From the IMG/VR virus record IMGVR_UViG_3300038701_001167, positions 7,536 to 71,535 of that record: 64,000 bases of DNA; one strand, written 5' to 3'. Under the pieces are notes generated by a model that had not been told where the DNA came from, did not search any database, and saw nothing but the letters and a program-made list of their open reading frames with translations. The DNA is from a virus. Both the position numbers and the translations under genes were made by a program. Shown here piece by piece: positions 3,243-58,466 of this stretch. Position 1 is the stretch's first letter. Each line of letters opens with the position of its first letter.

Positions 3243-3280
3243 GGCTCTATCCTTTCTGATTTGGTGTGGTGTGGTGTGAA

Positions 3281-3302
3281 GAGTGAGCCTTCGGGCTCAC
3301 TC
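3281..3302. terminator. 9-bp stem-loop overlapping the stop of 3297..3671
   Basis: GAGTGAGCC-TTCG-GGCTCACTC. Confidence 0.55.
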
Positions 3303-3671
3303 AGCGTTGACGAGAGGATGAAGCTCGGCAGGCTTCATCACGCGGTTCATGAGATTCGCATCATAGAAGTCTTTCGCTTCCCTTAATCCACATCCTGTGA
3401 TCTTACGAATAAGCTTGATCCTGTTGATAGGGCCAAATGTACCGTAGGTTAGGCCGTAGAGCTCTTCCAGTGAGATGATTGGGACCGGACGACTGTTCTC
3501 ACGAACAAGCTCATCCAACTGCGCTTGTAGGTCTGTGATCTGTGTCTGTAAGGTACAAATCTGGTGATGTAGATCATCATTGTATTCAGCCAGACAGATG
3601 TTGCGTTGAGTGAGATTCTCGATCTGTTTGATCTGGTTCTCAATGATGACAGTCATGACGGATTTCTTCAT
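3297..3671 (-). CDS. coiled-coil protein with a C-terminal ribosomal protein bL12 (L7/L12)-like domain
   Basis: NRIKLIRKITGCGLREAKDFYD resembles the bL12 C-terminal motif (AIKxVRxxTGLGLKEAKDLVE). Confidence 0.7.
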   Translation of the reverse strand: MKKSVMTVIIENQIKQIENLTQRNICLAEYNDDLHHQICTLQTQITDLQAQLDELVRENSRPVPIISLEELYGLTYGTFGPINRIKLIRKITGCGLREAKDFYDANLMNRVMKPAELHPLVNAE

Positions 3672-3675
3672 TGGT

Positions 3676-3906
3676 TCAGTCCTTTCTAAGAAGGGTTTCC
3701 ATTTCGTTACAGAAGCGAGATCGAGCTTCGATCACCTGTTCTGCTATGTGTTTGGGAACACGTTGGATGATGTCCTGATCAGAGTCAGCGATATCAACAG
3801 TCCCATCAGGATGCTCACCGAAGATCATCCAATGATTAAACATGGTTGTCTCTCCGGTGAGATACTTGATCTTGTGTGGAGCTGGGTACTGAATGGGAAG
3901 CTGCAT
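3676..3906 (-). CDS. hypothetical early protein (76 aa)
   Basis: AAGGA-TCTGAACCA-ATG start at 3906. Confidence 0.6.
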   Translation of the reverse strand: MQLPIQYPAPHKIKYLTGETTMFNHWMIFGEHPDGTVDIADSDQDIIQRVPKHIAEQVIEARSRFCNEMETLLRKD

Positions 3907-3923
3907 TGGTTCAGATCCTTGGT

Positions 3924-3998
3924 TTACAGTGCTGAGAGGATGGGTGTGATGACAGCGAAGAGGATCATCCAGAAGGCGCAAGTGATGTAAAGTTTCAT
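3924..3998 (-). CDS. small hydrophobic peptide (24 aa)
   Basis: MKLYITCAFWMILFAVITPILSAL; same CTGAACCA-ATG initiation context as its neighbours. Confidence 0.45.
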   Translation of the reverse strand: MKLYITCAFWMILFAVITPILSAL

Positions 3999-4033
3999 TG
4001 GTTCAGTCTTTCTCTATCAGGTTGAAGTAAGAA

Positions 4034-4049
4034 CAGGCCTTATGGCCTG
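4034..4049 (-). terminator. short stem-loop, possible terminator
   Basis: CAGGCC-TTAT-GGCCTG followed by TTCTT on the minus strand. Confidence 0.4.
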
Positions 4050-4068
4050 CTCATGTTATGAGGTTCAA

Positions 4069-4227
4069 TCAGGCAGCCAGCCTGAGCTGTTCCTGAAGAT
4101 CGAAGTATTGCTGAGTGAGTTGTTCAGCACGGTGATCACTGATGACCGGATTGCTGAGGTACGAGAGCAACGCAGCAGACTTGGCTTTGATCTGAGCTGC
4201 AGTTGTGTTGTTGCTACGTGTGGACAT
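4069..4227 (-). CDS. early protein (52 aa), first gene after a hairpin promoter
   Basis: MSTRSNNTTAAQIKAK...; GGAGG RBS. Confidence 0.6.
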   Translation of the reverse strand: MSTRSNNTTAAQIKAKSAALLSYLSNPVISDHRAEQLTQQYFDLQEQLRLAA

Positions 4228-4248
4228 GAGAGCCTCCATTGATTTGAT

Positions 4249-4268
4249 TCCAATGGAGCCGTAGGCTC
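4249..4268 (+). promoter_or_regulatory. N4-type vRNAP hairpin promoter (template on + strand, leftward transcription)
   Basis: TCCAATG-GAGCC-GTA-GGCTC: C-GNA-G triloop hairpin with a CC start site at N4-like spacing; near-identical copy at 5084. Confidence 0.75.
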
Positions 4269-4651
4269 TGCCTACCTAAAACATAGAGATCGCACTCCTG
4301 AAGCAACTGAGAGAGTCTCAGGTACAATTCAGGTATGCTCACACACAGGGAGTTACACGACTGTGTTCCTACTCAAGTTCAACTTCATATCTACTTTTGG
4401 AGATGTGTTGACAAAGAGAGTGTGACGTAGAGGAATGTTTAGGGTGATTGTAGTGGTTTAGGTGAGGGAAGTGAGTGTTTAGGAGATGAGACCCTTGAGA
4501 TAGATGTTAGCTAGATTAGAGTGTTTTACAGCATTATTCTCCACCATTTACTCTATATGTTCGAAGATTCTTCGAATGGTTCAGACATAAGTGGGAGATT
4601 CTCCCATCTCTATCATCTCTATCAGAGAGAGTGTTGAGTGTTATTGTATTA

Positions 4652-4677
4652 GGCTCCCACCCCGAAGGATGAGAGCC
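4652..4677 (-). terminator. terminator after 4683..5048
   Basis: Minus-strand RNA GGCUCUCAUCC-UUCG-GGGUGGGAGCC, directly after the stop codon. Confidence 0.6.
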
Positions 4678-4682
4678 ATAGT

Positions 4683-5048: not shown

Positions 5049-5083
5049 GAGTTAACTCCATTGATTGATTGACGGTAGGTATA

Positions 5084-5941: not shown

Positions 5942-6624
5942 TCACCGTCGACGAACTCGAGGTCTGTCTCCCGGCCAATATCAAATCTGCTGCAACCCAA
6001 GAGCTGGCTGACAAGATCAATCAACTGGCTCAGGATCCGGATGTTGCAGAGCAGATCACCCGGAACTTCGTGACACTGACTTCAGTGCTGCGAGAGGGGA
6101 AGTACAAGCTCGATGACTACCTGCATGCTGTGCATTACGTGTCGTTCAAGCTGATGGGCATGACCAACAAAGATGCCTACATGTACACCTTCCCTCAGAG
6201 GTATCAGAAGCTACAGGCACGGGGAGCCAGTGAGAAGGATATCTCGGCTTACGTGGCCGGCTACAGTAAGGGTAAGTTGGTAGGGGCATTGCTTGAACAG
6301 GCTGCCATTCCTGTCTGGGTATTGAACCAGGGAGTGTATCAGGAAGCGATCAACCGTCAGGCTTACCTCATGCAGCATGCTGACAGTGAGAAGGTCCAGA
6401 CAGAGGCTGCCAACTCTTTGCTGACACATCTCAAGCGCCCTGAGACCAAACAGGTCGAGCTGTCGTTGGAAGTCGGTGAAACCGATAACATGCGAAGCAT
6501 GAAAGACATGCTTGTGAAGATGGCTGAAACACAACAGCAGCTGATCCAACAAGGGGTCAATACTCGCAAGATTGCTCATCAAAAGATGGGTGAAATGATC
6601 GATATCACGCCTGAAGAGGCGTGA
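5938..6624 (+). CDS. N4 gp69 homolog (putative terminase small subunit)
   Basis: GKYKLDDYLHAVHYVSFKLMG..NKDAY..TFPQRY and VQTEAANSLLTHLKRPE are typical of gp69; lies upstream of TerL. Confidence 0.8.
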   Translation: MITVDELEVCLPANIKSAATQELADKINQLAQDPDVAEQITRNFVTLTSVLREGKYKLDDYLHAVHYVSFKLMGMTNKDAYMYTFPQRYQKLQARGASEKDISAYVAGYSKGKLVGALLEQAAIPVWVLNQGVYQEAINRQAYLMQHADSEKVQTEAANSLLTHLKRPETKQVELSLEVGETDNMRSMKDMLVKMAETQQQLIQQGVNTRKIAHQKMGEMIDITPEEA

Positions 6625-6696
6625 GCGGTTGCTGACGTTGTGGTGTGCATGGTTCTGATCACACCAAAGCACACCACATCAAAGGGCAAGTTGCTC

Positions 6697-7851
6697 ATGC
6701 AAACCAATGATATCTTGAGAGAGCAGGCGACTTGTCTTGCTTTGAAAGAGCAAGGTCACACACGTGCAGAGATTGCCGAAGCAACAGGGCTCAGTTTTGC
6801 TCAAGTTGCTCGGCGTCTCAGCGGAGCAGCTAAAGCCGCTCGCCTCGACCCATCACTCAAACATAGGCTAGAGGAGAAGGGGATTACGGACTTTGCCGGA
6901 CTGCATTCAGGCTGGCTACTTGAAAAGGATCAATATGGTTCCGGATCCTCCCTCTATTTCTACCTCGGGCCAGACGAAGAAAAGATCGACTTTGTTGATG
7001 CCCTGACAGAAGTCCTTTCTGACATTACCAAACTACCGCCAATCCCTGAACCAGCTTACAGTGTTGCCACCCAAGATTATTGCAACTGGCTCTTTCTGGC
7101 TGATCTACACATTGGTGGGGATTACGGAGACAGTCGTCAGACTGAAGATTTCATTGTCTGTATTGATGATTTGGTACGCCGTATGCCACTGGCTCAGAAA
7201 GCAGTGCTGTGTGAGCTGGGTGATCTTCTGGATGCCAATGACCATAAGGGTGTCACACCAGCGTCAGGCAACCCCACAGACACAATCCGCGATGGCCATC
7301 TACAAAATACGATGGAGGCTATCCGGCTGCTGAAATACGCATCCTATCGGTTGCTGGAAAAGCATGAAGAAGTCGAGCTTCACCTGATCCGAGGGAACCA
7401 TGATGAGACTGCCTTCTACGCAGTTCTCTTGGCTCTCCAAGAACACTTCCGGGAAAATCCCCGTCTGAAGGTGTTCGTACCTACCTGCCCTGAAGAAGAA
7501 GAGTTCCGTGTGATCTCTTGGGGCAACTGTGCCTTCCTGCCTCACCATGGTGACAAGGCAAAGCCTGAAGGTCTGAAGGAAGTCTTCACTGATCAGTTCC
7601 CTGACGAGTTTGCCGCGGCGAAAGCCTACCGGCTTATCGCCACTGGCCACCTTCACAATCTGAAAGTCCAAAGCCTGGGAGCGGTAGAGCACCGCCAGTT
7701 CAGCACAATCCACCGTCCCAATCGCTGGGCTCGGATGAAGGGTTTTTTCAACCATGGCCGACTCTCAGTCCTCACCGTCCACAAGACCTTGGGTCTGCAG
7801 GACGAAACCATGTCGAACATCACACCAATGCTGCGGGGAAAAGTCCAATGA
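6697..7851 (+). CDS. N-terminal HTH fused to a calcineurin-like metallophosphoesterase
   Basis: HTH-like GHTRAEIAEATGLSFAQVARRL; motifs ADLHIG, GDLLD, RGNHD, HHGD, GHLH. Confidence 0.8.
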   Translation: MQTNDILREQATCLALKEQGHTRAEIAEATGLSFAQVARRLSGAAKAARLDPSLKHRLEEKGITDFAGLHSGWLLEKDQYGSGSSLYFYLGPDEEKIDFVDALTEVLSDITKLPPIPEPAYSVATQDYCNWLFLADLHIGGDYGDSRQTEDFIVCIDDLVRRMPLAQKAVLCELGDLLDANDHKGVTPASGNPTDTIRDGHLQNTMEAIRLLKYASYRLLEKHEEVELHLIRGNHDETAFYAVLLALQEHFRENPRLKVFVPTCPEEEEFRVISWGNCAFLPHHGDKAKPEGLKEVFTDQFPDEFAAAKAYRLIATGHLHNLKVQSLGAVEHRQFSTIHRPNRWARMKGFFNHGRLSVLTVHKTLGLQDETMSNITPMLRGKVQ

Positions 7852-10212: not shown

Positions 10213-10223
10213 CGGAGAATTTC

Positions 10224-13602: not shown

Positions 13603-13673
13603 TAACTAGTTCCTTCCATCCTGTGTGCTGTGGTAAGACACACCATAGCACACCATAGCGAACGGAAACCCTC

Positions 13674-16678: not shown

Positions 16679-16813
16679 TGCTTTGTATCACCTTGTGCAC
16701 TCTTTTACGCACAGTCCTGCTTATTTGAAGGAAGTGGGATTGGTCGAAAGGTTGCTTACTCTATGGTTCTGCTGTCACACCACATCAAAGCACACCAGAC
16801 AGGTCAAGCTCCC

Positions 16814-18972: not shown

Positions 18973-19037
18973 TTCTCTTTGTTGGTGGTTGCTTTGGTTT
19001 GATTTGGTGTGAAAGAAGATTTCGAAACGGAGATTAC

Positions 19038-21893: not shown

Positions 21894-21916
21894 ACCTGAA
21901 GTAAGGCAACACACCA

Positions 21917-22288
21917 ATGCAAACCAAATCAACTCTTGATGGCGTTCTAAAGTCTCCGGAAAACGAGATTGAAGAACTGCAGATTACACTGGAAGATGCA
22001 AAGCGTACTGTCGCCCTTCGTGATGACCTCATGAAGCTGGCGAAGAACAAGCTGTTCAAATCGATCATCGTCGAAGCCTACATGAAAGATGAAGCTCTTC
22101 GTCTCACCCAAATCATCGGTGAAATTCAACATGTCGAGTACCGAGATGAGATTGTCGATGCTCTGAAAGGCATTTCTCATTTTCGTCAGTGGATGGACCG
22201 CATTCTTGGAATGGGTGACGTGGCTGAACAGTCAATCAAAGAATACGAGCAGGTTCTACAGGACGCCTATGCAGAGATGGAGGAGTAA
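21917..22288 (+). CDS. N4 gp58 homolog
   Basis: Synteny between portal and gp57; size. Confidence 0.7.
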   Translation: MQTKSTLDGVLKSPENEIEELQITLEDAKRTVALRDDLMKLAKNKLFKSIIVEAYMKDEALRLTQIIGEIQHVEYRDEIVDALKGISHFRQWMDRILGMGDVAEQSIKEYEQVLQDAYAEMEE

Positions 22289-22294: not shown

Positions 22295-23563
22295 ATGAGC
22301 ACTCCTGATTATGAAAACATGACAGACGAGGAGTTTGCAAAGCTGGAGAGCCCCCAAGGCTCGGAAGCGGAGCAGGCTCCCGTCGATGATACAGTAGAAG
22401 AGACCCCTACCCTTCCTGAAGGATCAAGTGGTCTGTTTGCTGATGACTTTGATGAAGACGATACTGTCGAAGCATCTCTGAACACAAAAACAGAAGAACC
22501 ATCTGAAGAAGCTGATCCGGTTGAAGGGGGTGATGAAGCTCCGGACGCAGAGACCCCGGCAGAAGAGACTGCTGAGGAGAACGCTGAAGACGTTGCTGAA
22601 GATGCTGCCACTGTTCCTGGTTCAGAAGACAGTCACACCAAATCAAAGCAAACCACAGAAGCAGAGACAAAGACCGAAACACCTGCCGAGACCAAAGGCA
22701 ATGGCGGATCCAGTCTCTCTCCTGAGGATGCGTACAAGCGCATCATGGCTCCGTTCAAAGCGAACGGCAAAGAGTTCACACCCAAAGATCCGGATGAAGT
22801 CATCCGTCTGATGCAGATGGGTGCGGGCTACAATCGCAAGATGGCAGAACTCAAGCCGAACCTTCGCATGATGAAGATGCTTGAGAAGAAAGGATTGCTT
22901 GATGAAGGGAAGCTCAACTTCCTCATCGACGTGAATGACCGCAACCCTGCGGCCATACAGAAGCTCCTTCATGACTCCAAGATCGATCCCCTCGATCTCG
23001 ATACGTCGGAAGAGCCGAAGTACCAACCAACCAACCACTCTGTAAGTGATGAGGAATACACTTTCACAGAAACCCTTAACGCAATTAAGCGTGAAGAAGG
23101 TGGAAGCGAAACTGTAAACGTCATCAACCAGCAGTGGGATCGTGCCTCGAAAGAGGAAGTGTTCAAAGAACCGAGCATCATCGGTTTGATCCACGAACAG
23201 CGGCAGAATGGAATTTACGACAAGATCACCGCTGAACTTGATCGACAGAAGATGCTGGGCGCCTTTGAAGGCGAGCCATTTATCTACGCTTACAAAGCTG
23301 TTGGAGACTACCTCCATTCCCGTGGTGAACTGATCCCCGCATCCACCGAAACATCTTCGGCTGGCCCTGCAGAGACCACTTCGAAGCCTCGTGAAATGGT
23401 CGAGACACGCACAGCGACACAGAAAGCGAAATTGGCAAACAGCGACCGGGTACAGGCAGCAGCCTCCCCTCGGTCAAATCCTGGTCAACCGAAAGCTCCC
23501 TTCGATCCGGTCAACATGTCGGACGAAGAGATCATGCGGATGACCCGTCCCCCAAGTTCGTAA
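22295..23563 (+). CDS. N4 gp57 homolog (scaffold-like)
   Basis: Acidic N-terminus; PFKANGKE...LMQMGAGY..KM motif. Confidence 0.8.
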   Translation: MSTPDYENMTDEEFAKLESPQGSEAEQAPVDDTVEETPTLPEGSSGLFADDFDEDDTVEASLNTKTEEPSEEADPVEGGDEAPDAETPAEETAEENAEDVAEDAATVPGSEDSHTKSKQTTEAETKTETPAETKGNGGSSLSPEDAYKRIMAPFKANGKEFTPKDPDEVIRLMQMGAGYNRKMAELKPNLRMMKMLEKKGLLDEGKLNFLIDVNDRNPAAIQKLLHDSKIDPLDLDTSEEPKYQPTNHSVSDEEYTFTETLNAIKREEGGSETVNVINQQWDRASKEEVFKEPSIIGLIHEQRQNGIYDKITAELDRQKMLGAFEGEPFIYAYKAVGDYLHSRGELIPASTETSSAGPAETTSKPREMVETRTATQKAKLANSDRVQAAASPRSNPGQPKAPFDPVNMSDEEIMRMTRPPSS

Positions 23564-29134: not shown

Positions 29135-29186
29135 ATGGTGTGACATCACACCAAATCACACCACGTAAGGAGACATGAGGTGAAAT

Positions 29187-37500: not shown

Positions 37501-40500
37501 CATGGCCGGTGCCGAAGCGCCTCATATGAATGAAGGTGAAGTGGTTGAAAGTTCTGTTCCGTTTGATCCTGAGCTGATCGCTGAGAAGCTGAACCAGTTC
37601 TATCAAGAAGCTTTGGAAGAAGCTCGGGAAGGTATTCGAACAGAGCGTCGTGCAGCTACTATTCAGGCGCCGAGTGCCAAGCTGATGAACCAGCTCAAGA
37701 AGATCGGTGAGCAGGTAGAAGGAACAGAAGCGGTCAAGCTTACTGGTTCCCAACTGACACAAGACGTCTTCAAGATGAGCAACGATGCAAGTCGTGAGCA
37801 GAACTCTGTGTTCTGGAAGCTGCTGTCTGAGCAAGACAGTCTTGCAGATTACACCTTCTATGTCGGTGAACAGGCTGACCTGGAAGACATCCGGTCTGAT
37901 CTGGGAATTGACTCCTCGGTGAGCATCAAAGCCGGTGCCATGTATCCGAAGAACAAAGTAGTGTTCATTGCCAATGCGTCTCCGGAAACACTGCTGCATG
38001 AAGCTCTGCACACACAGACGGCTCGGACATTGGTCGATCACTATGCGGACCCGGAGAACAGTGCTGACTATGTGGCAGATGCCATTGGCCGGTTGGAGAA
38101 CCTCAAAGACTTCTTCATGAACATGAGCTTCACCAAAGACACGGCTGAAGATCGGGCAGCCAATCTGTTGAAGGAACAGCTCACAGAGAAGGCGAATGAT
38201 CCAGCTGCTGCAATGTCAGAGTTCATCTCTTGGACTTTGTCGAACCAGAAGCTGATCAAGATTGGTCAGGACACCAAGGTCTACTCTCCACTGCAGAATG
38301 TCGGCCGCAAGGTACTGGCTCTGTTGGGTCGTCTATTGGGGATCAAAACTCGACCGGGCAAAACCCTGTTTGAGAAGGTCCGTTTCAACAGCGAGATCAT
38401 CATCAAGAGCCAAGACAAAGGCAGCAACAATCTCGATCTGCTCAAGCAAGAAGCCGAAACACAAGCTGTGTTTGAACAGGCTTACGGAGAAGATACCAAT
38501 CTGGATCGTCTGGAGAGCAAGTTCCAGCGTCGGATCCAGTCTGCATTGGAAGCGGCTGTCCGTCGTGTAGATGATCCGATGAGCACAGAGAGCGATAGCT
38601 CCGTGGTCAAGCGGGCAGGGGACCTCACTGCTATGGCCGAGAAAGCGGCTGAGCAAGTCGAGAGCTTTGGGTTTGCAATGAACCAGCGTGAGAAGGCTGT
38701 ATTCATGAGCATTCACACAGGCATGATGACGGATTTTGAAAGCAATCCGGCTGCACAGCGCAAAGCCTATGAGCTCTACTCTCACATGCTGAAGAATGCC
38801 AAGCCCGGATCACTGAGTGTGTTGGCCGGCAAAGGTGGATTGCGACAAACCAGTGAAGGTCAGACAGACCTGCTGGCAACCTTTGTGGCATTGGGCATGG
38901 TTCATCCTGGCTTCAAAGCTGAGCTTGCTGAGATGGACGGACCCAAGAACATGGTCGAGTATGAGCGCAGTGTAGATGGCACCCTGAGATGGTTGGCCAA
39001 CAGCTCGATCAACTATCTGACTCAGTCTGCCATTGCGATGAAGAAGTCCGGCAAGAAGATGGACACTCAACTTCTGGCTCTGGAAAACGCTCTGTCGACC
39101 TATCAAGTAGAGCGCCGTCATACAGCTGACCGGATTGCGATGAAGCCTCAGGAAGTGCTCGATCAGAAACTGTCTGTTCTTCTGGATCGTGGTTCCAAGA
39201 AGGCAGTGGCTTTCCTACGGTCCAAACAAAAGCCCACAGATGGTGTGCTCAAGTCTGGTGCTTTCGTCAGTGCTGAACTGATTGCAGCTATGGGATCGAA
39301 AGAGAGCATGGAAGATGTGGGCAATGGCCTGACCTACATGCTTAATGAGCTTGAGCCCTTCAAAGCTCTGCAAGAAATCTGGACCGATCTGCAGGGTGTG
39401 ACCAAATCCAATGCAGCTGTGATGGATCTGGTCAACAAGGTGAAGAGCCATGTCGATGCCATGCGTCAGGATTACCGGGAGAAGATCCCTCAAATCCTGT
39501 CCGAGAAGTTCACTCGCAAGATCACCCGTGATGAGTGGACACAGATGTTCGAGGGCATCTCTCAGACCGATCTGACCACATTGGGTAACAAGCAGGCTCT
39601 GACCCTGCTGAAAGACCTGACCCAACTGCCTGTGAAGATCAAACGAGCAGAGGCACTGGTTTCCGAATTGGCAAGCAACAACGGGACCCTTTACAAGAAG
39701 AAAGCCAACGCACTTGCACACTGGATGGTCAACAAGGAAGCCATCTCAACCAATCTGCTACGTAATGCAGAAGCCATCGCCAATCTCTACGGTGAAGGTG
39801 TTCAGGTTGGTTCTGAAATCACACCCGATCTGATCGAAGCCATTGACGATCTGACAACCCTCTATGCGTTGGACAAGGTGAGCCAAGAGACCAAGGACAC
39901 ATTGCAGGACTTGGCCAATACCGCAGAGGAAGGCCTGAAGTTCATCATTGGGTATCAGGCTTCTACCAAAGGTCTGGAGCTACAGCGTATTGCTGATGGA
40001 GAAGATGGGGCTGTGTCTCGGATCAACGGCTGGAAAGGCTATGCTCCTGTGACGGCTGCTGCTGGCAACTCGTTGGTTGTTCGAGACGACGTAGACTTCA
40101 AAGAGATGGTGAAACTCGGTTACGAACGTGTTGGTGACTACGAAGGAGATGCTCAGGAGAACTACCGTGGCAGCCGTGGATATTACCAGTCCACAGTGGG
40201 TGGTCGGTCTGCATATCGTCAGGGTGTAGCTCAGACTGTTCATGCTACGTTCCAAGGTGTTGATCCTCGAACTGGTGTGTCTCGGACAGGTGAGATGGCA
40301 GGGTTCATCTCCGGTCGGAAAGCTGAACTGGCAAAGAGAGCCAAGAAGCGAGTGAACAACGATCTGGCACCGGGCAATGGTGAAGTCATGGTTCCTGTCT
40401 ATGGCGCCAATGGAGACATCACCGGGTATGAGCTGACCATGGACCCCAAGCGTCGGGAAGCGTTGCAGGAAGACAAGCACATGGCTCGGATGCTCGGTGC

Positions 40501-41791
40501 CTGGTCTGGCCGTATCGTGGAAGAAACCATGTCGGATCGCTACAACAAGACCTTGGTTCAAACCCTGAAAGCTCAGTGGGATGAAGCAAGCCCTGAAGAG
40601 CGTCGGACCCAGTTCACCAATGTGGCGGATCCCAAGCACAAAGATGCTGTCATTCGAGATGCTTGGAACACCATGGGTTTCGGGATCAAAGATGCTGCTC
40701 GTGATGTGTTCAATGAGAGTGATACTCTCATGGTTCGCAAAGATCTGGTGAATGATGCACTGGGCTTCCACCAAGCGTCTGTCCGGGATGCCTTCACAGG
40801 AACGTCTCGTTGGTCTCCTGAGACACAGCAAGCTTTGGTGACGGCTGCTACAGCTGTCATGGGCAAGGATGCCTATAAGTACATGGTCAAAGCTGAAGAC
40901 GGAATTGGTGATCTGGTGTCCTATGCCAAGACCACAATCGTGGTTCGATCGATGACTGTGATCTGGGAGAACTTGCTGTCCAACAACCTGCACCTGCTGA
41001 CATGGGGTGTAGGACCGGTAGAGCTGGTCAAGGCACAGAGAGCCAAGTTCATTGAGATCAATCAGTATGTAAAGAACCAGGAGCGTATTCTGGAACTGAA
41101 CGCTGAACTGGCAGCCAACATCGAAAATGCAAGCAAAGCTCGTCGGATCACTGCTGAGTTGCGAATGCTCGATGATGCCAATCAGAAGCTGAGCATTCGT
41201 CCTCTGCTGGAAGCCGGTGAATTCTCAACAGTCTCTGAGAGCCTCACTGAAGCCGATCAGGCCATTCGGGAAGGGAAGCTCAGTGACTTCTTTGAGAAGG
41301 CTGCTGACAGGCTGCCTGGTGGCGTGCAGACAGCATTCAAGAACTTTGCCATCACCAAAGACACTGCATTGTTCCAAGGTCTCAACCGGGCTGTCCAGTA
41401 TGGGGACTTTGTGTCCAAGGCTGTGCTCTACGATCACCTGACAAAAGTGAAAGGCAAGACCGAAGCTGAAGCGATGGATGTGATCAAGGAAGAGTTCGTG
41501 AACTATAACCGCCTGTCTGGTCGAGATCGGGATTACCTGGAAAGCACAGGCATGCTCTGGTTCATGAACTATAAGATCCGGATCATGAAGATCATGGCTC
41601 GGATGGTACGTGAACGGCCAGCCTCCGCTCTGTTCTATGCTGGTGGGGTAGGTCCGATGGCAGACATTGACACAGTTGTAACTGGTTCAGGTCTGGGGGC
41701 TTATCTCGACAATCGCCTCGGATACGCGATTGGGCCTGAAATGGGTGTAAACGGGATCTTCATGAACCCGTGGAATAGCTTGGTGAACTGA
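31502..41791 (+). CDS. virion-encapsidated RNA polymerase (N4 gp50 homolog)
   Basis: 3,429 aa; SSVGRLQ, motif A EADGKTDGPINA, motif B RNLIKNPLTVLLYGSG, motif C VFDG; LLHEALH zincin-like motif; no Cys seen on reading. Confidence 0.97.
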   Translation: MSGIDLNFGNQPKVNQTKSNQKQAQVEDTSLAKKLQFGSQQDQWALATAMQNGNAISQDEFMRDMTNASDTDIAAKYGFEVVQNRAGYLQQYRDLEAFKQSSGEPVDIANDTAVSVTKGAMNTAGAMGSIAASAWDAVTAGPRALGEQIHGQAQTPLSEVAAEGLNWANEAVDGLKSDRSVEMRNQFALEQSLDQQDRDAEFEAGETKGFVDQAITEAKKFGDTIANLADNPYTAMETVAEGIGSLGPIAKTIQGLARANTARKLVAEGMTKKEARDLIQRDAGQALVQEEALRLVPTVTALTEGGSAGLQARQEILAMSEEELMQSPEYQKMIEDGMDPDQARSKLIEMAGRPAELTGATLGLLTGRISRAFEASPGKVGSGAGAGKTVALETGEEALQEASNQAASNVGVNAAGFEREITDGLGEAAAMGAAGGLGTAGVMQAPGAAATAVVETAKATGRAAEAGFKARMNSIEQATDDASPVGQKAVSGTSEQMRKDAAVISEVAANETTPEQIKALDTKVQEALYLPDEDADSYIESLPALAQVKESTGKVDRYSLINEVSPIITNEEIAPVDRLGAAVLVMESFDALRSLDNDESNALVQSLEAGDQTGSRFGRLKKDVNKLTSSPAVKRAEEIIRTLEPEMINAVFPLTENADAATLQAYRTISRYNTLAIDESQYDMVLEQVSENDALRKEFTAGKEARKIFDEADKAKASLSEEVGGSYNTKSMVREQILSTGNKNNDMPSIVEHYRNVMDNMAIGRKEEAAAALVELREFAQSQVNKTVAFNTAADTGVTNAADGIGYEAYGPFKNYFRKEGGAWFNKNSPNSVALARDVHVDTTAVANTYNTLAEIYPELVSNGETRIDVPELSQIITESKSAPIETDPVEPEKAERRIRKDAKPDASLTDAVTPEGQAVKDAVTKKAKAQKRTTAKQTTPKPTKSEPVKAEEPVESTTKVEAEPEPEVIAEDKADVEELISEADTIAEVEETPETEQKSLADVFPNLIKENGNNWFLKTFSRRENGSKFLDQDSPMETLLREVTGLNAEQSNELKTLKDVLAPKLQEYLDGMAKDGLLNPKMGWLKSLMEGTKDVLGYKNASSLNFRSTVDGKGQFDPKVIEAFTMAVGEWMLKSEARLPRQLDNEEINKRFGRNRDHAVTDFERQLVNLGGIQLQSVIDDISGSAMKLMGVTADKSQPVKFSQGIFRGMAANVLEALADSEGADWIGITQYDYDVNGSKRTYTSIQLNKDVDAVKDFTQALKGRQDLFEKVFLEAPEADYFFEPIQETPRSVTRQRFNEVQPIAEKVIKRLQSTPNRFVAPMMEFRSALGDDVFKRLAGFRDFDPKTTNEAHATSIQSKNRSIERALDGIDQHYARAEAYAAEQGKTAEQTDLFFKWNISSVGRLQQEGYITPQGDKIAREMISSTMSTLDLNNENHVKAIWLAAAQAFDIKPGIEKQSHEKSVRDIQELFNGDLKPAMELVKDWMISGEMTDADALEAALINSGADISMKSVHALLTVAQMEYVLENDPEGAGIFQTSLALEADGKTDGPINAMINVGFGQFTPHQIKVMAKGGLIVSGSEMSLNRYIEGDAEHTGDKEDLYEVAAQSLERNLGSYTAENAPVIFDLMDTFLKGFSFKDGKLDIGRNLIKNPLTVLLYGSGKAGIASKLASAIKDELHALMSDIAESGKPWHQHPKFIENPALVDTLKAVFGNQIISLLENPIKSKIEGPLEKALSGQIDETIGEALVEAIDEATGGLREAMELVRTATQIQGIAFEDAYDKAIERIRTEKGLKKSQLSEKDYETAFVEASQVAPIYNNGAQEFHIVASEKYSSENQISSSLRERLSSGATIPKPGAVGVKGQPYLVIGTGDGRMIINILEAGDADMDRTLMVFDGVEIALDNVFSASRQINQAVWKGWQEESVTTLVHDGYQNFLRQFKPDELGEKGKEALNKLAKSNKTGVDNLISGVGSQLQAKSAQNLARKKALSKVQAYIDHMAGAEAPHMNEGEVVESSVPFDPELIAEKLNQFYQEALEEAREGIRTERRAATIQAPSAKLMNQLKKIGEQVEGTEAVKLTGSQLTQDVFKMSNDASREQNSVFWKLLSEQDSLADYTFYVGEQADLEDIRSDLGIDSSVSIKAGAMYPKNKVVFIANASPETLLHEALHTQTARTLVDHYADPENSADYVADAIGRLENLKDFFMNMSFTKDTAEDRAANLLKEQLTEKANDPAAAMSEFISWTLSNQKLIKIGQDTKVYSPLQNVGRKVLALLGRLLGIKTRPGKTLFEKVRFNSEIIIKSQDKGSNNLDLLKQEAETQAVFEQAYGEDTNLDRLESKFQRRIQSALEAAVRRVDDPMSTESDSSVVKRAGDLTAMAEKAAEQVESFGFAMNQREKAVFMSIHTGMMTDFESNPAAQRKAYELYSHMLKNAKPGSLSVLAGKGGLRQTSEGQTDLLATFVALGMVHPGFKAELAEMDGPKNMVEYERSVDGTLRWLANSSINYLTQSAIAMKKSGKKMDTQLLALENALSTYQVERRHTADRIAMKPQEVLDQKLSVLLDRGSKKAVAFLRSKQKPTDGVLKSGAFVSAELIAAMGSKESMEDVGNGLTYMLNELEPFKALQEIWTDLQGVTKSNAAVMDLVNKVKSHVDAMRQDYREKIPQILSEKFTRKITRDEWTQMFEGISQTDLTTLGNKQALTLLKDLTQLPVKIKRAEALVSELASNNGTLYKKKANALAHWMVNKEAISTNLLRNAEAIANLYGEGVQVGSEITPDLIEAIDDLTTLYALDKVSQETKDTLQDLANTAEEGLKFIIGYQASTKGLELQRIADGEDGAVSRINGWKGYAPVTAAAGNSLVVRDDVDFKEMVKLGYERVGDYEGDAQENYRGSRGYYQSTVGGRSAYRQGVAQTVHATFQGVDPRTGVSRTGEMAGFISGRKAELAKRAKKRVNNDLAPGNGEVMVPVYGANGDITGYELTMDPKRREALQEDKHMARMLGAWSGRIVEETMSDRYNKTLVQTLKAQWDEASPEERRTQFTNVADPKHKDAVIRDAWNTMGFGIKDAARDVFNESDTLMVRKDLVNDALGFHQASVRDAFTGTSRWSPETQQALVTAATAVMGKDAYKYMVKAEDGIGDLVSYAKTTIVVRSMTVIWENLLSNNLHLLTWGVGPVELVKAQRAKFIEINQYVKNQERILELNAELAANIENASKARRITAELRMLDDANQKLSIRPLLEAGEFSTVSESLTEADQAIREGKLSDFFEKAADRLPGGVQTAFKNFAITKDTALFQGLNRAVQYGDFVSKAVLYDHLTKVKGKTEAEAMDVIKEEFVNYNRLSGRDRDYLESTGMLWFMNYKIRIMKIMARMVRERPASALFYAGGVGPMADIDTVVTGSGLGAYLDNRLGYAIGPEMGVNGIFMNPWNSLVN

Positions 41792-42321: not shown

Positions 42322-42338
42322 CTCTGGCCCTCCTTGGT

Positions 42339-42674
42339 TCAAACTGGTGCGTGGTGCATGGTCACACCTTCGCTATGGGCAACATATGCCTCAGCTTCTT
42401 CCTGAGAGAAGAGGCCAGCTTTCAGATGTGTGCCGGTGTAGCCTTTGGCTCCAGGACGGAAGTAATAGCCGTTCTTGCGAAGAAAGAATTTGTTGCCGGG
42501 ATTGTATTTGGCCTTGAGTGTATCTTCATAACCATGCCACGCGATTCCAGCGTTAATGAGAGCTTCAGCCTGGGTGTTTCCAAGTCCAGAGTGACCTGGA
42601 CCATCATTGATGACACAGAGCCATTTGTGTCCGTAGACATGACCGTCAAGAAATTTGATTGTTGGAGTATTCAT
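42339..42674 (-). CDS. hypothetical protein (111 aa)
   Basis: AAAGGA RBS. Confidence 0.65.
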   Translation of the reverse strand: MNTPTIKFLDGHVYGHKWLCVINDGPGHSGLGNTQAEALINAGIAWHGYEDTLKAKYNPGNKFFLRKNGYYFRPGAKGYTGTHLKAGLFSQEEAEAYVAHSEGVTMHHAPV

Positions 42675-45401: not shown

Positions 45402-45439
45402 ATGAGTTTCCTTGTTTTGGCTTGAATTGGTGTGGTGTG

Positions 45440-46171
45440 TTAGGCGGCTTTAGAGGCGCCGTAGTAGGACTTCAGGCGATCAAAGACGAGGTTGACATCG
45501 TTGTCGATGTAGAGCTCTTCCCGATTCCAGAAGCCAATGGGAGCACGCATCTTTTCACCAGGATGATCCTTGGTGACACGGGTGGTGAAGACGTATTTGA
45601 CGCCATCCTCTTCTTCTTCATCGGTGATGTTGAGAAGGGCGTTCTCGTGCTTTTTGAGCTTGGTCACAGGCATTTGCTTGGTTCCAAGAATGGTGGTGAA
45701 GTCAGCTTCTACGCCAACTTTACCCACGGCACCTTTGATCGGCACCTTGGTCTCGTTTGTAAGAGTGGCTTCATTATAGACGGTGTCTTCGTGAGCCAGG
45801 ATCACATAGTCCTTGGTTCCAGATTTGATAGCGTGAATGAAGTCACGGTAGAAGTTGCCGTAGTTGCCCCAGGCTTTCTGGGTGTCTTTGGCTGTTGCGA
45901 CGTTCTGGCGCTCATACATCATCATCAGGAAGGTGACGGTATCGAGCACAGCACCGGTGATACCGGGGTTGGTTTCGATCTCCTGAATGAATTCCAGGAT
46001 GTCGGTTGCATTGGAGATTTCTGCCTCAGCCGCGAAACGAGACTGGAAGGGAATTTCTTTGAGGTCTGTGTTGAGATAGACCATCGATTCCATCGGCAGG
46101 TTGCGAAGCGAACTGGATTTGCCAGTGTTCGGTCGGCCCATGATGAGAACAATGTTTTTGTTCTGGCTCAT
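45440..46171 (-). CDS. AAA ATPase (N4 gp44, Sak4-like)
   Basis: GRPNTGKSSSL; VLDTVTFLM..YE. Confidence 0.85.
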   Translation of the reverse strand: MSQNKNIVLIMGRPNTGKSSSLRNLPMESMVYLNTDLKEIPFQSRFAAEAEISNATDILEFIQEIETNPGITGAVLDTVTFLMMMYERQNVATAKDTQKAWGNYGNFYRDFIHAIKSGTKDYVILAHEDTVYNEATLTNETKVPIKGAVGKVGVEADFTTILGTKQMPVTKLKKHENALLNITDEEEEDGVKYVFTTRVTKDHPGEKMRAPIGFWNREELYIDNDVNLVFDRLKSYYGASKAA

Positions 46172-49357: not shown

Positions 49358-49452
49358 GAGTGTATTCCCCCTGGCTCTATGGTTTGATGTGCTTTGGTGT
49401 GATGGTGGTTGGTCCTAAACCCCAGATAGGGATGTGACCAACCACCGATCGA

Positions 49453-54263: not shown

Positions 54264-54272
54264 TGTGTGTCC

Positions 54273-54554: not shown

Positions 54555-54635
54555 TTTGGTCTCCTGATTTGGTGGGGTAAGTAGTATCTTTTGATGTAAG
54601 CAAGAATAAACTTTAAATAGTTTTCAGTACGTTAG

Positions 54636-54656
54636 TATAATCTGGTGTGGTGTGAT
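54636..54656 (+). promoter_or_regulatory. putative parA promoter (-10) with an adjacent TGGTGTGGTGTGAT motif
   Basis: TATAAT at 54636-54641 immediately followed by the dispersed repeat. Confidence 0.5.
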
Positions 54657-54722
54657 GCGATTTAACGTGACAGCACGTCATACGCTGTGTCAACTTGACC
54701 TCGGGAAAACTTGGAGCATGAT

Positions 54723-55433
54723 ATGCCGGTACTTACCTTCGCATCGTCTAAAGGAGGGGCAGGGAAAACAACCTCTGCAATCATCTTGGCGACGACACTA
54801 TGTCGTGACCACAAAGTGTGTCTGATTGATGCTGATCCAGCCAAACGATTGATGGGCTGGTCAGAAAAGGGGAAGCTTCCTCTTCGTCTTGAAGTCATGA
54901 GCACTCGTGGAGAGAAGCACATCCACGAAGAGATCGAGGCAGCCAAAGAACGGGCTGAGTTCGTGATCATCGATTTGGAAGGTGCAGCAACTCGCCTGAA
55001 CGCATTTGCTATGGGAGAAAGTGATTTGGTCATCATCCCGATGGGAGATGAGCAGCAGGACGCTGAGGGAGCCATTGAGACAATGTCTGAGCTGGCTCTG
55101 GAAGCTCGTCAGATGCGTCGGGAGATCCCGGTACGCATCTTGTTTGCTCGTACTCAGGCCGCGGTTAAATCGCGTCTGGAGAAGTCTTTGAATGAGCAGG
55201 TACGTGATAAGGTAGGAGCATTTGCCACAGAGCTTCATCGCAGGACTGCATTCTCTTCACTGCACAACCTTGGTGGTTCGCTCTACCAGATGAATACGAA
55301 TGAAGTGACTGGTGTGGCTAAGGCCATCGCCAATGCAGAGCTGTTTGCAGAAGAGTTGAAGAAAGACCTGAAGGTGATCGATCGTATGCGCAAGTCACCT
55401 CGCAAGATCAATGGGGAGATGAAGCATGCCTAA
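54723..55433 (+). CDS. parA: ParA partition ATPase (short, type Ib/ParF-like)
   Basis: Deviant Walker A SSKGGAGKTT, IDADP, IIDLEG; no N-terminal HTH. Confidence 0.93.
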   Translation: MPVLTFASSKGGAGKTTSAIILATTLCRDHKVCLIDADPAKRLMGWSEKGKLPLRLEVMSTRGEKHIHEEIEAAKERAEFVIIDLEGAATRLNAFAMGESDLVIIPMGDEQQDAEGAIETMSELALEARQMRREIPVRILFARTQAAVKSRLEKSLNEQVRDKVGAFATELHRRTAFSSLHNLGGSLYQMNTNEVTGVAKAIANAELFAEELKKDLKVIDRMRKSPRKINGEMKHA

Positions 55434-55677
55434 GGCGATGGATTTTAAGAAACTGGATCAACTGAAAGAGTCAGAGCGTCGTGAACTTGAACGGGGACGT
55501 TGGAAGTCTCGTGACATCAATCCAACTGTGCAGATGTCTATCCGGATAGAAGAGGAAGAGTATCTTCGCTTCAGGGCTCTATGCAAAGCAGAGCGTCGAA
55601 CCAATGGTGAGATGCTTATTCACTTGATGAATGCGTATCTGTCCACCACCGAGGAGCGAACGGAACAACCCCGGTGA
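55426..55677 (+). CDS. ribbon-helix-helix partition/centromere-binding protein (ParG-like)
   Basis: Overlaps the parA stop; VQMSIRI strand followed by two helices. Confidence 0.7.
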   Translation: MPKAMDFKKLDQLKESERRELERGRWKSRDINPTVQMSIRIEEEEYLRFRALCKAERRTNGEMLIHLMNAYLSTTEERTEQPR

Positions 55678-55751: not shown

Positions 55752-55940
55752 TCAGGTATCTTTAGAAAGAGAGCCATCGCTCTGGCTCTCCATATGCTTT
55801 AAATCCTGTACGGCTTTTTTCCGAGACCAGTATTCTTTATAAGCGTGATCAAGCTGTAGCTTTGACTTCTCTAACTGTACTTCAGCCCATGTAGTCTTGA
55901 GGCGAGACCATGCTCTTGATGTGATGGGAAATTGCATCAT
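55752..55940 (-). CDS. hypothetical protein (62 aa)
   Basis: ATGA coupling. Confidence 0.5.
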   Translation of the reverse strand: MMQFPITSRAWSRLKTTWAEVQLEKSKLQLDHAYKEYWSRKKAVQDLKHMESQSDGSLSKDT

Positions 55941-56167
55941 TCTGACTGCTCCCCGGATTCAATCGCTTCTTTTATTTTGACGCGCGTGTCAGATGCAAAT
56001 TTCATGGTCGCATGGAGTTCGCCCGCATAGGCGTGTCTTTGTGCAAATTCAGCGTCCCGCGCCAAAGTTCGTAAGACACCGCGTAGCCGTTCAATCTCGG
56101 CCATCAACTCAGCCTCGCGCGGCGCCGGTGGCAGTTTCACGTCTTGGCGTGGCATGGGGTCAAGCAT
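55937..56167 (-). CDS. hypothetical protein (76 aa; AEIERLR motif)
   Basis: Overlap coupling with 56160..56387. Confidence 0.55.
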   Translation of the reverse strand: MLDPMPRQDVKLPPAPREAELMAEIERLRGVLRTLARDAEFAQRHAYAGELHATMKFASDTRVKIKEAIESGEQSE

Positions 56168-56387
56168 CGCTCTGGCCCTCCTTGGATTCACAGTCAACAT
56201 CGCCTACGAGGCGCGAGTTTTTCGGCATCAGCGCGCAGTACCCCACCTCGCGTATCAGGTTGGCTGCATCGTTTCGTAAAGGCTCATCGCTGATCCACCA
56301 GCGCCGAAAGAAGCCGCGCCAGCCCGTGCGCTCAACTGCCATGTTGTGAAGAATACAAAGCGCCCGCATTTGCTGTTCTCGGGTCAT
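56160..56387 (-). CDS. hypothetical protein (75 aa)
   Basis: ATGA coupling. Confidence 0.55.
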   Translation of the reverse strand: MTREQQMRALCILHNMAVERTGWRGFFRRWWISDEPLRNDAANLIREVGYCALMPKNSRLVGDVDCESKEGQSDA

Positions 56388-56611
56388 TCTGCCTCCCCGG
56401 ATTCACTCATTGCGGCGTCCCATCCAGCGTTGAAACCCATAACGTAGGGTCTATCGCTTTTCATCCTGACCAATTCGTCACGAAGGTGCTCAATCTCTTT
56501 TGCAGCATCCAGCATGATCGCTTGACCAGTATCAAACGTGCCAGTCTCAGCCATGACACGCGCAGCGTCTTTTAGGTCTTTGGTGAGACCGTGATCGGTC
56601 ATGGCGCTCAT
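56384..56611 (-). CDS. hypothetical protein (75 aa)
   Basis: AAGGAG RBS. Confidence 0.55.
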   Translation of the reverse strand: MSAMTDHGLTKDLKDAARVMAETGTFDTGQAIMLDAAKEIEHLRDELVRMKSDRPYVMGFNAGWDAAMSESGEAE

Positions 56612-56630
56612 TCTGACTGCTCCTTAGTAA

Positions 56631-56781
56631 GATTCTACTTGTTCTGATTCAAAGATTCATGGTGATAAAACACTCGAAAAAACAAACTGTTAGCGGCCTA
56701 AACATAACCAATCTGGGGCAAGCCATAACGAATATGGGGTGAAAGATAACGGATCTGGGCTGAACTATAACCAATCTGGGG
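56631..56781. repeat. putative plasmid origin: 3 GANTC sites, AT-rich stretch, 4 iterons at 21-bp period
   Basis: ATAAC(C/G)(A/G)AT(C/A)TGGG(G/C) at 56704, 56725, 56746 and 56767; GATTC at 56631, 56646 and 56654. Confidence 0.85.
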
Positions 56782-56785
56782 AAGA

Positions 56786-57664
56786 TCAGTCTTCGTCGAT
56801 CACATCAGACTTGAGAGACTGTCTTGTGGTCTTTCCGACGCTTGGCATTGGGTCCAAAACATAACTGACTGTGTTGGTGATACGAGCTTTGCGGCCGACT
56901 TTTGGTTGCTGCAGTTCTTGGAAAGCTGACTTGATCTCATCGATGTTTTTCTTCCACCAACCCAGGCGAATGTGAGTTACCTTTCGACCGGTCTTGATGG
57001 GAGCCACTGAGATGTGGAAGTCGGCAAGAGCATTGATCTCTTGTACTGCAGGCTTGATCACTTTCTGAGCTAGGTTCCCATAGGAAGGATATTTGTCTGC
57101 CTCCACACCCAAGAGAGTTCTGAACTCATCTAGTGTGTATGTGTGACTTATCTTGTGATCGAGCCCAGAGAGTTGAGCAGCATTTTCATAGAGAGAAATA
57201 CCGTATTTGGAGGAGAGAGACAACAGAACAGGAAAGCTGATCTTCCCCCAAATAGTTGAGTTGCTTAGGATTTTGGTGAGACGCTTGTCAAAGGAGTAGG
57301 TCAAAGTTCCGGCTGGCCGATCTGGAGAATCCAGATCGTTACCACCAAGGAACTGGACCCGTGTGGTTGATCCATCGGCATGTTTGACAGTGACCAGGGT
57401 TTTCATCAGAGCCTCAATGGACTCGACAACAATCTCATATCCCTTGTGTCGTGAACCAATGAGATCAGAGATCTCGATGGTGTAATCCTTGTTCTCTTGG
57501 ATCCCCTGAGAATGGGCGTTGTGCCATAGCAAGGTAATCGATCGACGAGCAGCAAGAGAGAGGTTCTCATGTCCTGTTACCTGGATCAATTCAGCAGGCT
57601 TCTTTGCCTCTCCGGGAAGAGGGCGCTGATCGATAACGAGGTATGAGGACTTTGATTCAGACAT
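56786..57664 (-). CDS. Rep_3-family plasmid replication initiator (Rhodobacteraceae type)
   Basis: KPAELIQVTGH..LSL.ARR.I..LWHNAH, RVQFLGGND, LTYSFD, SKY...LYE, TLDEFR.LLGV...KY, VIKPAV.EIN, KTGRKVT. Confidence 0.92.
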   Translation of the reverse strand: MSESKSSYLVIDQRPLPGEAKKPAELIQVTGHENLSLAARRSITLLWHNAHSQGIQENKDYTIEISDLIGSRHKGYEIVVESIEALMKTLVTVKHADGSTTRVQFLGGNDLDSPDRPAGTLTYSFDKRLTKILSNSTIWGKISFPVLLSLSSKYGISLYENAAQLSGLDHKISHTYTLDEFRTLLGVEADKYPSYGNLAQKVIKPAVQEINALADFHISVAPIKTGRKVTHIRLGWWKKNIDEIKSAFQELQQPKVGRKARITNTVSYVLDPMPSVGKTTRQSLKSDVIDED

Positions 57665-57674
57665 TCCCCAAATG

Positions 57675-57741
57675 TAACCAATCTGGGGAAGTATGTAAGA
57701 GGAAAAGGGGAGCCAGTTACAGTTCCCCAGATTTGTTATAG
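57675..57741. promoter_or_regulatory. inverted pair of iteron half-sites upstream of rep (candidate autorepression operator)
   Basis: TAACCAATCTGGGGAA at 57675 and inverted TTCCCCAGATTTGTTA at 57723. Confidence 0.7.
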
Positions 57742-57844
57742 TTGACAGCAAGTCCCTAGCTGTCTCTCCTCTCTCGAGGTCGCCCTTACAGGTGCCTTTC
57801 CCTGGGCTCGGGAGGATCCGAACCTGCTCCGGATTGAAATTCTA

Positions 57845-58189
57845 TCAAACGTCTCCGACGAAGGTGTAGAGACATCCTTCTTTGGTTCGTTCTGTGCGAA
57901 TGAAACCAACCTTGTCGAGATCACGGCAGACCCTACGAAGGTTGGGAGCCTGTGCATCTGATATGTTGGTGAGAAGGTCCTTGGTGGTCACTGGACCGGG
58001 TGAGTTCTTGAGATAAGCCATAACGTCTTTCTTGATACGGCTGGGAGGAGGAACATGGTGCTTCATTCCTGAAGCAGGCAAGCGTGGCTTGTGTCCCTCT
58101 GCCTCAGTCAACTTTTTCATCATGTTTCCAAACATGGCCTCAACGGCCTGGTATTGGGTTTGTACGGTAGTGTCCAAACTAGCCCTCAT
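57845..58189 (-). CDS. winged-helix DNA-binding protein
   Basis: IKKDVMAYLKNSPGPVTTKDLL...LRRVCRDLDKVGFIRTER....YT. Confidence 0.65.
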   Translation of the reverse strand: MRASLDTTVQTQYQAVEAMFGNMMKKLTEAEGHKPRLPASGMKHHVPPPSRIKKDVMAYLKNSPGPVTTKDLLTNISDAQAPNLRRVCRDLDKVGFIRTERTKEGCLYTFVGDV

Positions 58190-58466
58190 ATGTTTGCAGT
58201 GAGTGAAACTGCTTTGGTGTGATGTGGTGTGGAATACATCAACCATATGAGAGAAGGGGTCAAGAGGTGTTGGGCAGTTAGTCGCATGCCCAGGCCAGAT
58301 TTGCTCTATCTATCTTAACTGGTTTCCCATTTCCGAGACCAGAACTCGGCGGGTAATGAGTTAAGATGTGCTGATACTTCCTTGATAAAAGAAAGTTTTT
58401 CAGCAGGAAATGTGATGACACTGACGAGAGCGAATATCAGTAGGAGCATCACAGAAAACATAAACA

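Follow-up and report, generated by a model that had tools for sequence, protein, structure and literature searches.

Introduction

In the plasmid prophage N15, partition (sopC) sites are scattered among the phage genes; their reader, SopB, is a type Ia helix-turn-helix (HTH) ParB, and the sites are palindromic. In the ParF/ParG system of TP228, repeats lie upstream of the ATPase gene, and we know of no dispersed sites for ParG. The omega protein of pSM19035 is centromere binder and global regulator in one, and its sites consist of 7 to 10 contiguous 7-bp repeats, in direct order or as inverted pairs, that overlap promoters (PMC9499535). The stoperators of L5, more than 20 asymmetric sites located at promoters and in short intergenic gaps, follow transcription in their orientation and silence lytic genes in the lysogen (PMC9283540). 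Here we describe arrays of a tandem pentamer that recur at ∼15 loci in a 64-kb stretch (the window) of the N4-like virus record IMGVR_UViG_3300038701_001167, which comprises 72,475 bp with overlapping ends. Of the explanations weighed here, we favor, tentatively and as possible rather than probable, the one in which these arrays are double-stranded DNA binding sites of a ParG-like ribbon-helix-helix (RHH) protein of 83 amino acids (aa), the type Ib partner of a phage-encoded ParA.

Array unit and distribution in the window

The array unit is the tandem pentamer MANCA (M = A or C), occurring as CACCA, AAGCA, AATCA, CATCA, and AACCA. CACCA is the commonest unit and stands mostly at the 5′ end, with AAGCA, AATCA, CATCA, or AACCA after it. 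In-register counts in the intergenic arrays are 19 for CACCA, 4 for AAGCA, and 3 each for AATCA and CATCA; CA-to-CA lags have maxima at 5, 10, and 15; and the composition is A 44%, C 43%, T 9%, and G 4%, with A+C amounting to 87%. Runs of three or more MANCA units match 11 times in the window, against 0.15 ± 0.41 expected from 200 dinucleotide shuffles (maximum, 2). TCACACCA occurs 15 times (3.8 expected; 0 of 100 shuffles reach 15) and CACACCA 38 times (12 expected). Each site has 3 to 8 contiguous, non-palindromic units, and both direct and inverted orders are found.

The first-pass annotation of the window, made from its letters alone, had listed 11 sites, all of which are present at the positions and on the strands given there. 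Four more arrays, absent from that list, lie within coding sequence (22631-22660, 31544-31563, 33024-33058, and 34300-34324). Intergenic enrichment, which the annotation proposed to check, is pronounced: 10 of the 15 arrays are intergenic, in a window of which 7.7% is intergenic (binomial p = 1.5e-8). The 16-mer ATCACACCAAAGCACA is indeed common to 6658 (+) and 49403 (−), and the inverted pairs are real at 29136/29146, 6639/6670, and 13618/13641. The sites and their associated elements are as follows; gene calls here and below are rough ones made within this analysis.

3257..3281, − strand: array TCA-CACCA-CACCA-CACCA-AATCA, directly after a 9-bp hairpin and 14 nucleotides (nt) from the ATG of a 42-aa early-region open reading frame (ORF)
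6639..6648, + strand: reverse-complement unit TGTGGTGTGC, pairing with GCACACCACA at 6669-6678 (duplex −23 kcal, z −3.4)
6657..6684, + strand: array ATCA-CACCA-AAGCA-CACCA-CATCA, 15 nt from ATG 6697 of a DNA-repair exonuclease-like gene; it heads a gene cassette
13618..13632, + strand: reverse-complement units CCTGTGTGCTGTGGT, upstream of the 13638 array
13638..13659, + strand: array ACA-CACCA-TAGCA-CACCA-TAGC, 14 nt from ATG 13674 of a tail-fiber-like gene
16775..16797, + strand: array TCA-CACCA-CATCA-AAGCA-CACCA, 16 nt from ATG 16814
18987..19012, − strand: reversed array, 25 nt upstream of a + strand endolysin-like gene (ATG 19038)
21907..21933, + strand: array CAACA-CACCA-ATGCA-AACCA-AATCA, in the stretch that separates the portal and phrog_2346 genes
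22631..22660, + strand: array within a 422-aa gene (22295-23563), itself upstream of a 401-aa gene (23576-24781)
29136..29164, + strand: inverted pair TGGTGTGA-CA-TCACACCA, then AATCA-CACCA, 22 nt from ATG 29187
45423..45440, − strand: array ACA-CACCA-CACCA-ATTCA, extending as AGCCA-AAACA nearly to the Shine-Dalgarno (SD) site, upstream of the single-strand-binding protein (SSB) gene (ATG 45401)
49380..49404, − strand: array CATCA-CACCA-AAGCA-CATCA-AACCA, 22 nt from the exonuclease ATG (49357)
∼49405-49447, − strand: hairpin GGTGGTTGGTC/GACCAACCACC of 11 bp, ending 3 nt before the exonuclease array
54643..54662, − strand: array ATCA-CACCA-CACCA, 65 to 80 nt upstream of the parA ATG and 88 nt from the gene on its own strand
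58210..58232, − strand: array CCA-CACCA-CATCA-CACCA-AAGCA, 20 nt from ATG 58189 of the 114-aa gene preceding rep

Conservation across the clade and linkage to partition genes

Relatives were exonuclease-encoding loci fetched from viral and metagenome collections. All 14 relatives (55 to 97% identity) have an exonuclease gene with an array upstream, and 10 of 11 have one upstream of the SSB gene; array positions are orthologous in at least 14 marine N4-like relatives. Intergenic sequence of the relatives is unalignable outside the arrays, and their G+C content ranges from 38 to 58%; those of low G+C use AAGCA and AATCA, with A2, C4, and A5 kept.

Several lines of evidence tie the arrays to partition genes. 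First, every array-bearing relative that covers the par region, including the complete genomes G403 and G404, has ParA and a small protein downstream of it. Second, arrays occur in every ParAB-bearing relative examined (L011, L012, L061-L071, G403, and G404). Third, ∼50 N4-like loci lacking par have neither ParA/ParB nor arrays, including L030 and L047, which span the syntenic interval; an equal motif frequency in such par-less relatives was what the first-pass annotation had named as refuting a parS/operator role, and the arrays are absent there.

Beyond the clade, 48 N4-like loci of lower identity (≤52%) were found to have no arrays. When 2.9 million viral contigs were searched for strong arrays, the result was 36 loci, about a third of which belong to this clade; the rest are single (CACCA)n tracts in phages without ParA. 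Of 401 Pseudomonadota genomes, 10 have a four-unit array, mostly pure microsatellites far from gene starts. Since the arrays are confined to the clade and rare elsewhere, dispersed multicopy arrays are a property of this phage clade and not of the host or of phages generally. These searches led us to reject a host-wide translation signal (10 of 401 genomes, mostly off gene starts) and an element common to unrelated phages (one tract per non-N4 contig, no ParA). Chi-like, rut-like, tRNA-CCA mimic, and 16S (1406-1413) look-alikes were also dropped, as none predicts placement at gene starts or the parAB link. No description of the motif itself was found in the literature.

The sporadic single (CACCA)n tracts of unrelated phages and bacteria raise the alternative that the arrays have no sequence-specific reader and are either pentanucleotide microsatellites born of slippage or linkers for recombination where modules meet. 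In its favor, a variable gene cassette has the 6658 array at its head, and the 16-mer is common to two window sites; yet the arrays mix CACCA, AAGCA, and AATCA and are not pure microsatellites, they persist at orthologous positions where the exonuclease is only 55 to 65% identical, and five of the six changes relative to the 97%-identical relative keep the pentamer pattern (judged by eye). We consider this alternative extremely improbable.

Two side observations concern arrays in other settings. Arrays like that at 22631-22660 occur in L105, L106, L126, and L133, loci with a homologous 422-aa gene (∼50% protein identity); if the array position within the homologous genes matches, selection would act on DNA or RNA and not on protein. 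L122 and L139, which represent an unrelated phage of 49.7 kb, have an ORF-free succession of hairpin, (CACCA)4 tract, and intrinsic terminator (∼3292-3340 in L122), a layout that looks like that of a small RNA gene.

Partition genes, the ParG-like protein, and the parA site

A plasmid-like module consisting of ParA, an overlapping 83-aa gene, and a Rep_3 initiator (56786-57751) lies between the helicase gene and a block of small genes. ParA (54723..55433, + strand; 236 aa) is a Walker ATPase that matches Pfam VirC1 (2.5e-17), AAA_31, CbiA, and MipZ, with no other domain. The 83-aa gene (55426..55677, + strand) overlaps the parA stop codon, and an AlphaFold2 (AF2) model of its product, made with 12 homologues, has a strand at residues 34-41 and helices at 43-56 and 60-79, with a predicted local distance difference test (pLDDT) score of ∼90 in the core. 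Foldseek placed ParG first (1p94; E 0.16, weak), followed by CopA, PutA, ParD, AmrZ, and Arc, all of which are RHH proteins; an E-value this weak is usual for a domain this small. The Pfam RHH_10 match has an E-value of 0.002, under the curated cutoff. The modeled fold thus has as its best structural match ParG, a type Ib centromere-binding protein, and we describe the 83-aa protein as a ParG-like RHH protein on that basis. In the strand, Q36, S38, and R40 do not vary among 12 relatives and T34 hardly does, a conservation that fits that of pentamer positions A2, C4, and A5. Variant strands occur in L069 (V35K) and in L062 and L065 (TMQTS).

The array upstream of parA, read on the parA strand, lies 65 to 95 nt from the parA start in 11 of 13 relatives, and the divergent gene is 10 to 88 nt away from it, depending on the relative. 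The observation that a site abuts the parA −10 box was accurate: the 54643 array begins 1 nt downstream of it. This promoter, TTTAAA-18-TATAAT (54612-54641, + strand), is sigma-70-like, with 10 of 12 matches, and is the best in the 44- to 60-kb region. In G403, G404, and L071, a strong array closely follows parB, in a convergent gap that lacks any gene start, and where only one or two perfect arrays are found in 14 to 21 kb (L064, L065, L068, and L128), one stays at parAB. No other repeats were seen beside parAB, and the 54643 array is a candidate for both parA operator and centromere. The Rep_3 iterons were considered as the same motif and rejected: they form a separate, unrelated repeat, CCCCAGATTGGTTAT, with four similar copies ∼21 to 22 bp apart at ∼56700-56785, just past the rep stop codon.

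Rep_3 itself is present in part of the clade (L011, L062, L065, L070, and G403). In X11, a metatranscriptome relative that is ∼93% identical, an 848-bp stretch (55778-56627, with four small − strand ORFs) is replaced by 16 letters.

From what is observed, namely, the RHH fold and arrays that are conserved and associated with parAB, we infer binding, its register, a centromere role, and silencing in the following form. RHH dimers would bind cooperatively to contiguous 5-bp units, or to alternate ones (10 bp), whether these are direct or inverted. The site at the parA promoter would be operator and centromere of the partition module. At ∼10 other sites, which lie after one gene has ended and before the ribosome site of the following gene, the same protein could restrain replication, structural, and lysis operons genome-wide during plasmid carriage, in the manner of omega or of stoperators. 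A role as duplex sites of the ParG-like protein would account for the co-occurrence throughout the clade, for arrays at a fixed place relative to parA and also past parB, for tolerance of inversion, for the mixture of direct and inverted units, and for variable copy number, features that pSM19035 omega sites show as well (PMC9499535). If this is true, the site grammar of RHH proteins would be extended to a 5-bp unit.

The first-pass annotation had offered either the RHH protein or a winged-HTH (wHTH) protein as a user of these sites for partition and for silencing of lytic operons. The RHH part of that idea is supported in part, by the ParG-like fold and its conservation together with the arrays. 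The wHTH part is not: a homologue of the 57845 protein (114 aa) was found only in the 97%-identical relative, and a protein so restricted is unlikely to bind a clade-wide motif. No conserved HTH repressor was found in the clade.

Five considerations weigh against the ParG-like protein as reader of the arrays. First, the co-occurrence of ParAB and arrays is a property of one clade and counts as a single evolutionary event. Second, L061, L062, and L070 have parAB and no array upstream of parA. Third, we know of no RHH site with a 5-bp unit, and that of omega has 7 bp (WATCACW). Fourth, ∼80% of arrays point in the direction of the downstream gene, which a symmetric dimer would not predict. Fifth, most arrays are 0 to 35 nt from start codons, in probable leader DNA, with a host-type promoter only at parA.

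The same DNA-level evidence would serve another phage DNA-binding protein that reads the arrays as double-stranded sites, as activator or repressor. An example is the conserved 170-aa early protein (2449-2961), which has homologues in G403 and G404. Its RHH_1 match is weak and below the cutoff (E 0.015) and, unlike parAB, its gene has no positional link to the arrays; we regard such a reader as very unlikely.

The presence of ParA and the RHH protein across the clade suggests a lineage of N4-like phage-plasmids and not a one-off acquisition. To our knowledge, N4-like phages (Schitoviridae) are regarded as purely lytic. A broader proposal, about which we are doubtful, is that this marine lineage persists as plasmids, with the ParG-like protein polymerizing on 5-bp-phased arrays and so silencing replication, structural, and lysis operons. 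In that case, arrays between operon signals and ribosome sites would combine the principles of omega (centromere plus regulator) and of stoperators (elongation block), a combination that we put forward with equal reserve and in a binding register not known for the RHH fold. Were the arrays sites for the partition protein, a type Ib ParB would double as a genome-wide switch between plasmid carriage and lytic growth.

Orientation, gene starts, and transcription signals

The arrays are codirectional with the next gene in 10 of 11 cases in the window and in 24 of 24 in the replication-region loci of the metagenome relatives. Reversed sites are conserved as well: the array before the endolysin gene (18987) is also reversed in L075, L077, L079, L080, and G404, and in G404 reversed arrays lie 21 to 33 nt before three late-gene starts. 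In the gap between the portal and phrog_2346 genes, the array is codirectional in the window and G404 and reversed in G403, a flip in at least one orthologous site.

Segments complementary to the array (duplex ≤−12 kcal) are found upstream of 12 of 50 arrays and downstream of 2 of 50 (p = 2e-5 versus shuffles), and about a quarter of arrays have a strong hairpin within 5 nt before them. Stems of ≥7 bp occur upstream of 40% of arrays, against 26% in shuffles; this enrichment is modest, and a universal upstream hairpin is not supported.

Placement at the head of gene groups, mostly on the gene strand, together with the hairpins that immediately precede about a quarter of the arrays, fits a promoter element for the phage N4-type RNA polymerase II (RNAPII) or its single-strand-binding cofactor. 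The CA-rich or GT-rich strand would be read once the DNA is open, and transcripts would start at or just after the array. Such an element would agree with N4 biology (PMC4496689, PMC7145618, PMC9163698): N4 RNAPII uses single-stranded templates with the cofactor gp2, and the middle promoters of LUZ7 consist of hairpins that precede the start site by ∼15 bp (PMC4496689, PMC9163698). RNAPII is encoded here, its large subunit at L009 5406-7565, with the small subunit assigned at window positions 45-590 (− strand), a gene not itself scanned. The replication region has few host-type promoters (8, versus 11.3 expected), and arrays within genes or past parB could function as promoters of internal or antisense transcripts.

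A single-subunit polymerase promoter would, however, be expected to fix both its length and the base after it, whereas the arrays vary from 3 to 8 units with no fixed base following. Reversed arrays lie at equal distance from late-gene starts, one orthologous site is flipped, and the position of the array upstream of parA tracks parA and not the gene to which it points. Par-less N4-like relatives with the same polymerase have no arrays, and their exonuclease site has only a terminator-like hairpin. We consider a promoter role unlikely. In metatranscriptome contigs X8, X9, X11, and X13, which were compared with the 42- to 62-kb region of the window and come from relatives ∼93 to 95% identical, no molecule starts were found, and contig breaks near arrays are due to strain variation. 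The first-pass reading of the sites as promoter operators holds at parA alone, because no sigma-70-like promoter was found beside any other array.

The exonuclease site allows the two layouts to be compared. In par-less relatives (L013-L060 and L103), a hairpin with variable stems and the conserved loop CTTTTCTNGGG lies 30 to 80 nt upstream of the exonuclease gene, with a T-rich tail after it and often TGAACCAAG before it; the conserved loop is unusual for a terminator. The window hairpin at ∼49405-49447 has a loop (..CTATCTGGGG..) that resembles it. Par-less relatives having the hairpin only and the window having hairpin and then array, the arrays look like an addition to an ancestral layout.

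Proximity to start codons was another claim of the first-pass annotation, and seven sites (3257, 6658, 13638, 16775, 29136, 49381, and 58210) end 14 to 23 nt before a start codon on the same strand; the start codon downstream of the 21907 array is ambiguous. Such placement is what an element of the RNA 5′ leader would show, either a G-poor, unstructured, CA-rich translation enhancer or the operator of a cooperative RNA-binding regulator. The tobacco mosaic virus (TMV) Omega leader raises translation through protein S1, and in T4 gene 32 a leader with repeats is the operator at which a regulator binds RNA cooperatively. The richness of the arrays in A and C is in keeping with a leader role, and in some relatives (L012, L069, L077, and L080) arrays abut the SD site or the ATG. 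The excess of complementary segments upstream over downstream also fits, as these would mask the array in read-through transcripts.

A leader role is nevertheless distinctly unlikely. It does not account for arrays far from starts (convergent gaps past parB, the interior of the 422-aa gene, and the parA gap, at 74 to 88 nt), and wherever a reversed array is conserved, the leader would have a GU-rich tract. Weaker SD sites at array genes were considered and dismissed, as the difference from other genes (−4.8 versus −6.1 kcal) is not significant (p = 0.10). Genes without arrays have ordinary SD sites and no CA-rich context, and arrays are nearly absent from the 401 bacterial genomes. Should the arrays be promoter or leader elements and not bind the ParG-like protein, a large uncultured marine N4-like clade would have in them its first defined signal of middle or late expression; such promoters are hard to find even in cultured N4-like phages (PMC9163698).

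A separate short motif, TGAACCAA, has 18 sites in the window, against 3.3 expected (e.g., 3671-3678, 3906-3913, and 42334-42341, all on the − strand). In many cases it makes up a stop-ACCA-start junction (..CTGAACCAATG) or stands ahead of the SD site (GAACCAAGGAGG), and it recurs in distant N4-like relatives.

Genome organization

The N4-like identity of the virus is evident from a virion RNA polymerase of 3,429 aa (31502-41791, + strand), with structural genes upstream on the + strand, and from N4-type replication genes on the − strand (SSB, exonuclease, primase, DNA polymerase A, and helicase); the RNAPII genes are at the left edge of the window and beyond. The DNA comes from algal, marine, and estuarine samples. 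No close isolate phage was found (DNA polymerase identity, ≤58%), and a host search returned only 46%-identical relatives, in Aquabacterium and Haliea metagenome-assembled genomes.

The RNAPII large-subunit gene to the left of the window is represented by two ORFs of 167 and 262 aa, which match phrog_2051 positions 1-140 and 141-401, respectively, with an endonuclease VII/HNH-like ORF (6340-6936) between the halves; the split looks like a homing-endonuclease insertion. In the early region, residues 82-105 of a 124-aa protein (3297-3671, − strand) have a subthreshold match to the ribosomal L7/L12 C-terminal domain (E 2.5e-4; 21.7 bits versus a cutoff of 25.9). No family of Rfam 15 reached its gathering score anywhere in the window.

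Comparison with known partition and silencing systems

The partition module has the composition of a type Ib system, namely, a short Walker ParA with a small RHH partner directly downstream of parA. The repeats near the par operon, upstream of parA at a nearly constant distance and/or just past parB, would be its putative centromere. TP228 ParF/ParG is close in both proteins, ParG being the best structural match and the ParA being short and of the Walker family only.

The omega system of pSM19035 is similar in having a small RHH partner of a ParA ATPase and dispersed, short, non-palindromic, contiguous repeats in direct and inverted order. Omega repeats overlap the promoter of the parA-like gene and others, whereas here, among sigma-70-like promoters, only that predicted for parA was found beside an array, and omega-like ATCACA is found only at the 5′ edge of some arrays. 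Unlike omega sites, the ∼11 to 15 sites of this 72-kb phage genome lie mostly by lytic gene starts and not at plasmid-maintenance promoters, and they are biased toward the direction of transcription; the likeness would be one of site layout and RHH fold. N15 shares the location of partition sites among phage genes (candidate sites in the present case) and differs in its HTH ParB and palindromes.

For the orientation bias, the L5 stoperators provide a precedent among DNA-bound repressor sites. They are single 13-mers read by a monomeric HTH repressor, and their reversal abolishes function, in contrast to the present repeat arrays, for which an RHH dimer is the candidate reader and of which some conserved sites are reversed. 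Having neither a 7-bp unit, as omega sites do, nor a monomeric HTH reader, as stoperators do, the arrays are members of neither group; by analogy with the two, they may work like a blend of omega sites and stoperators.

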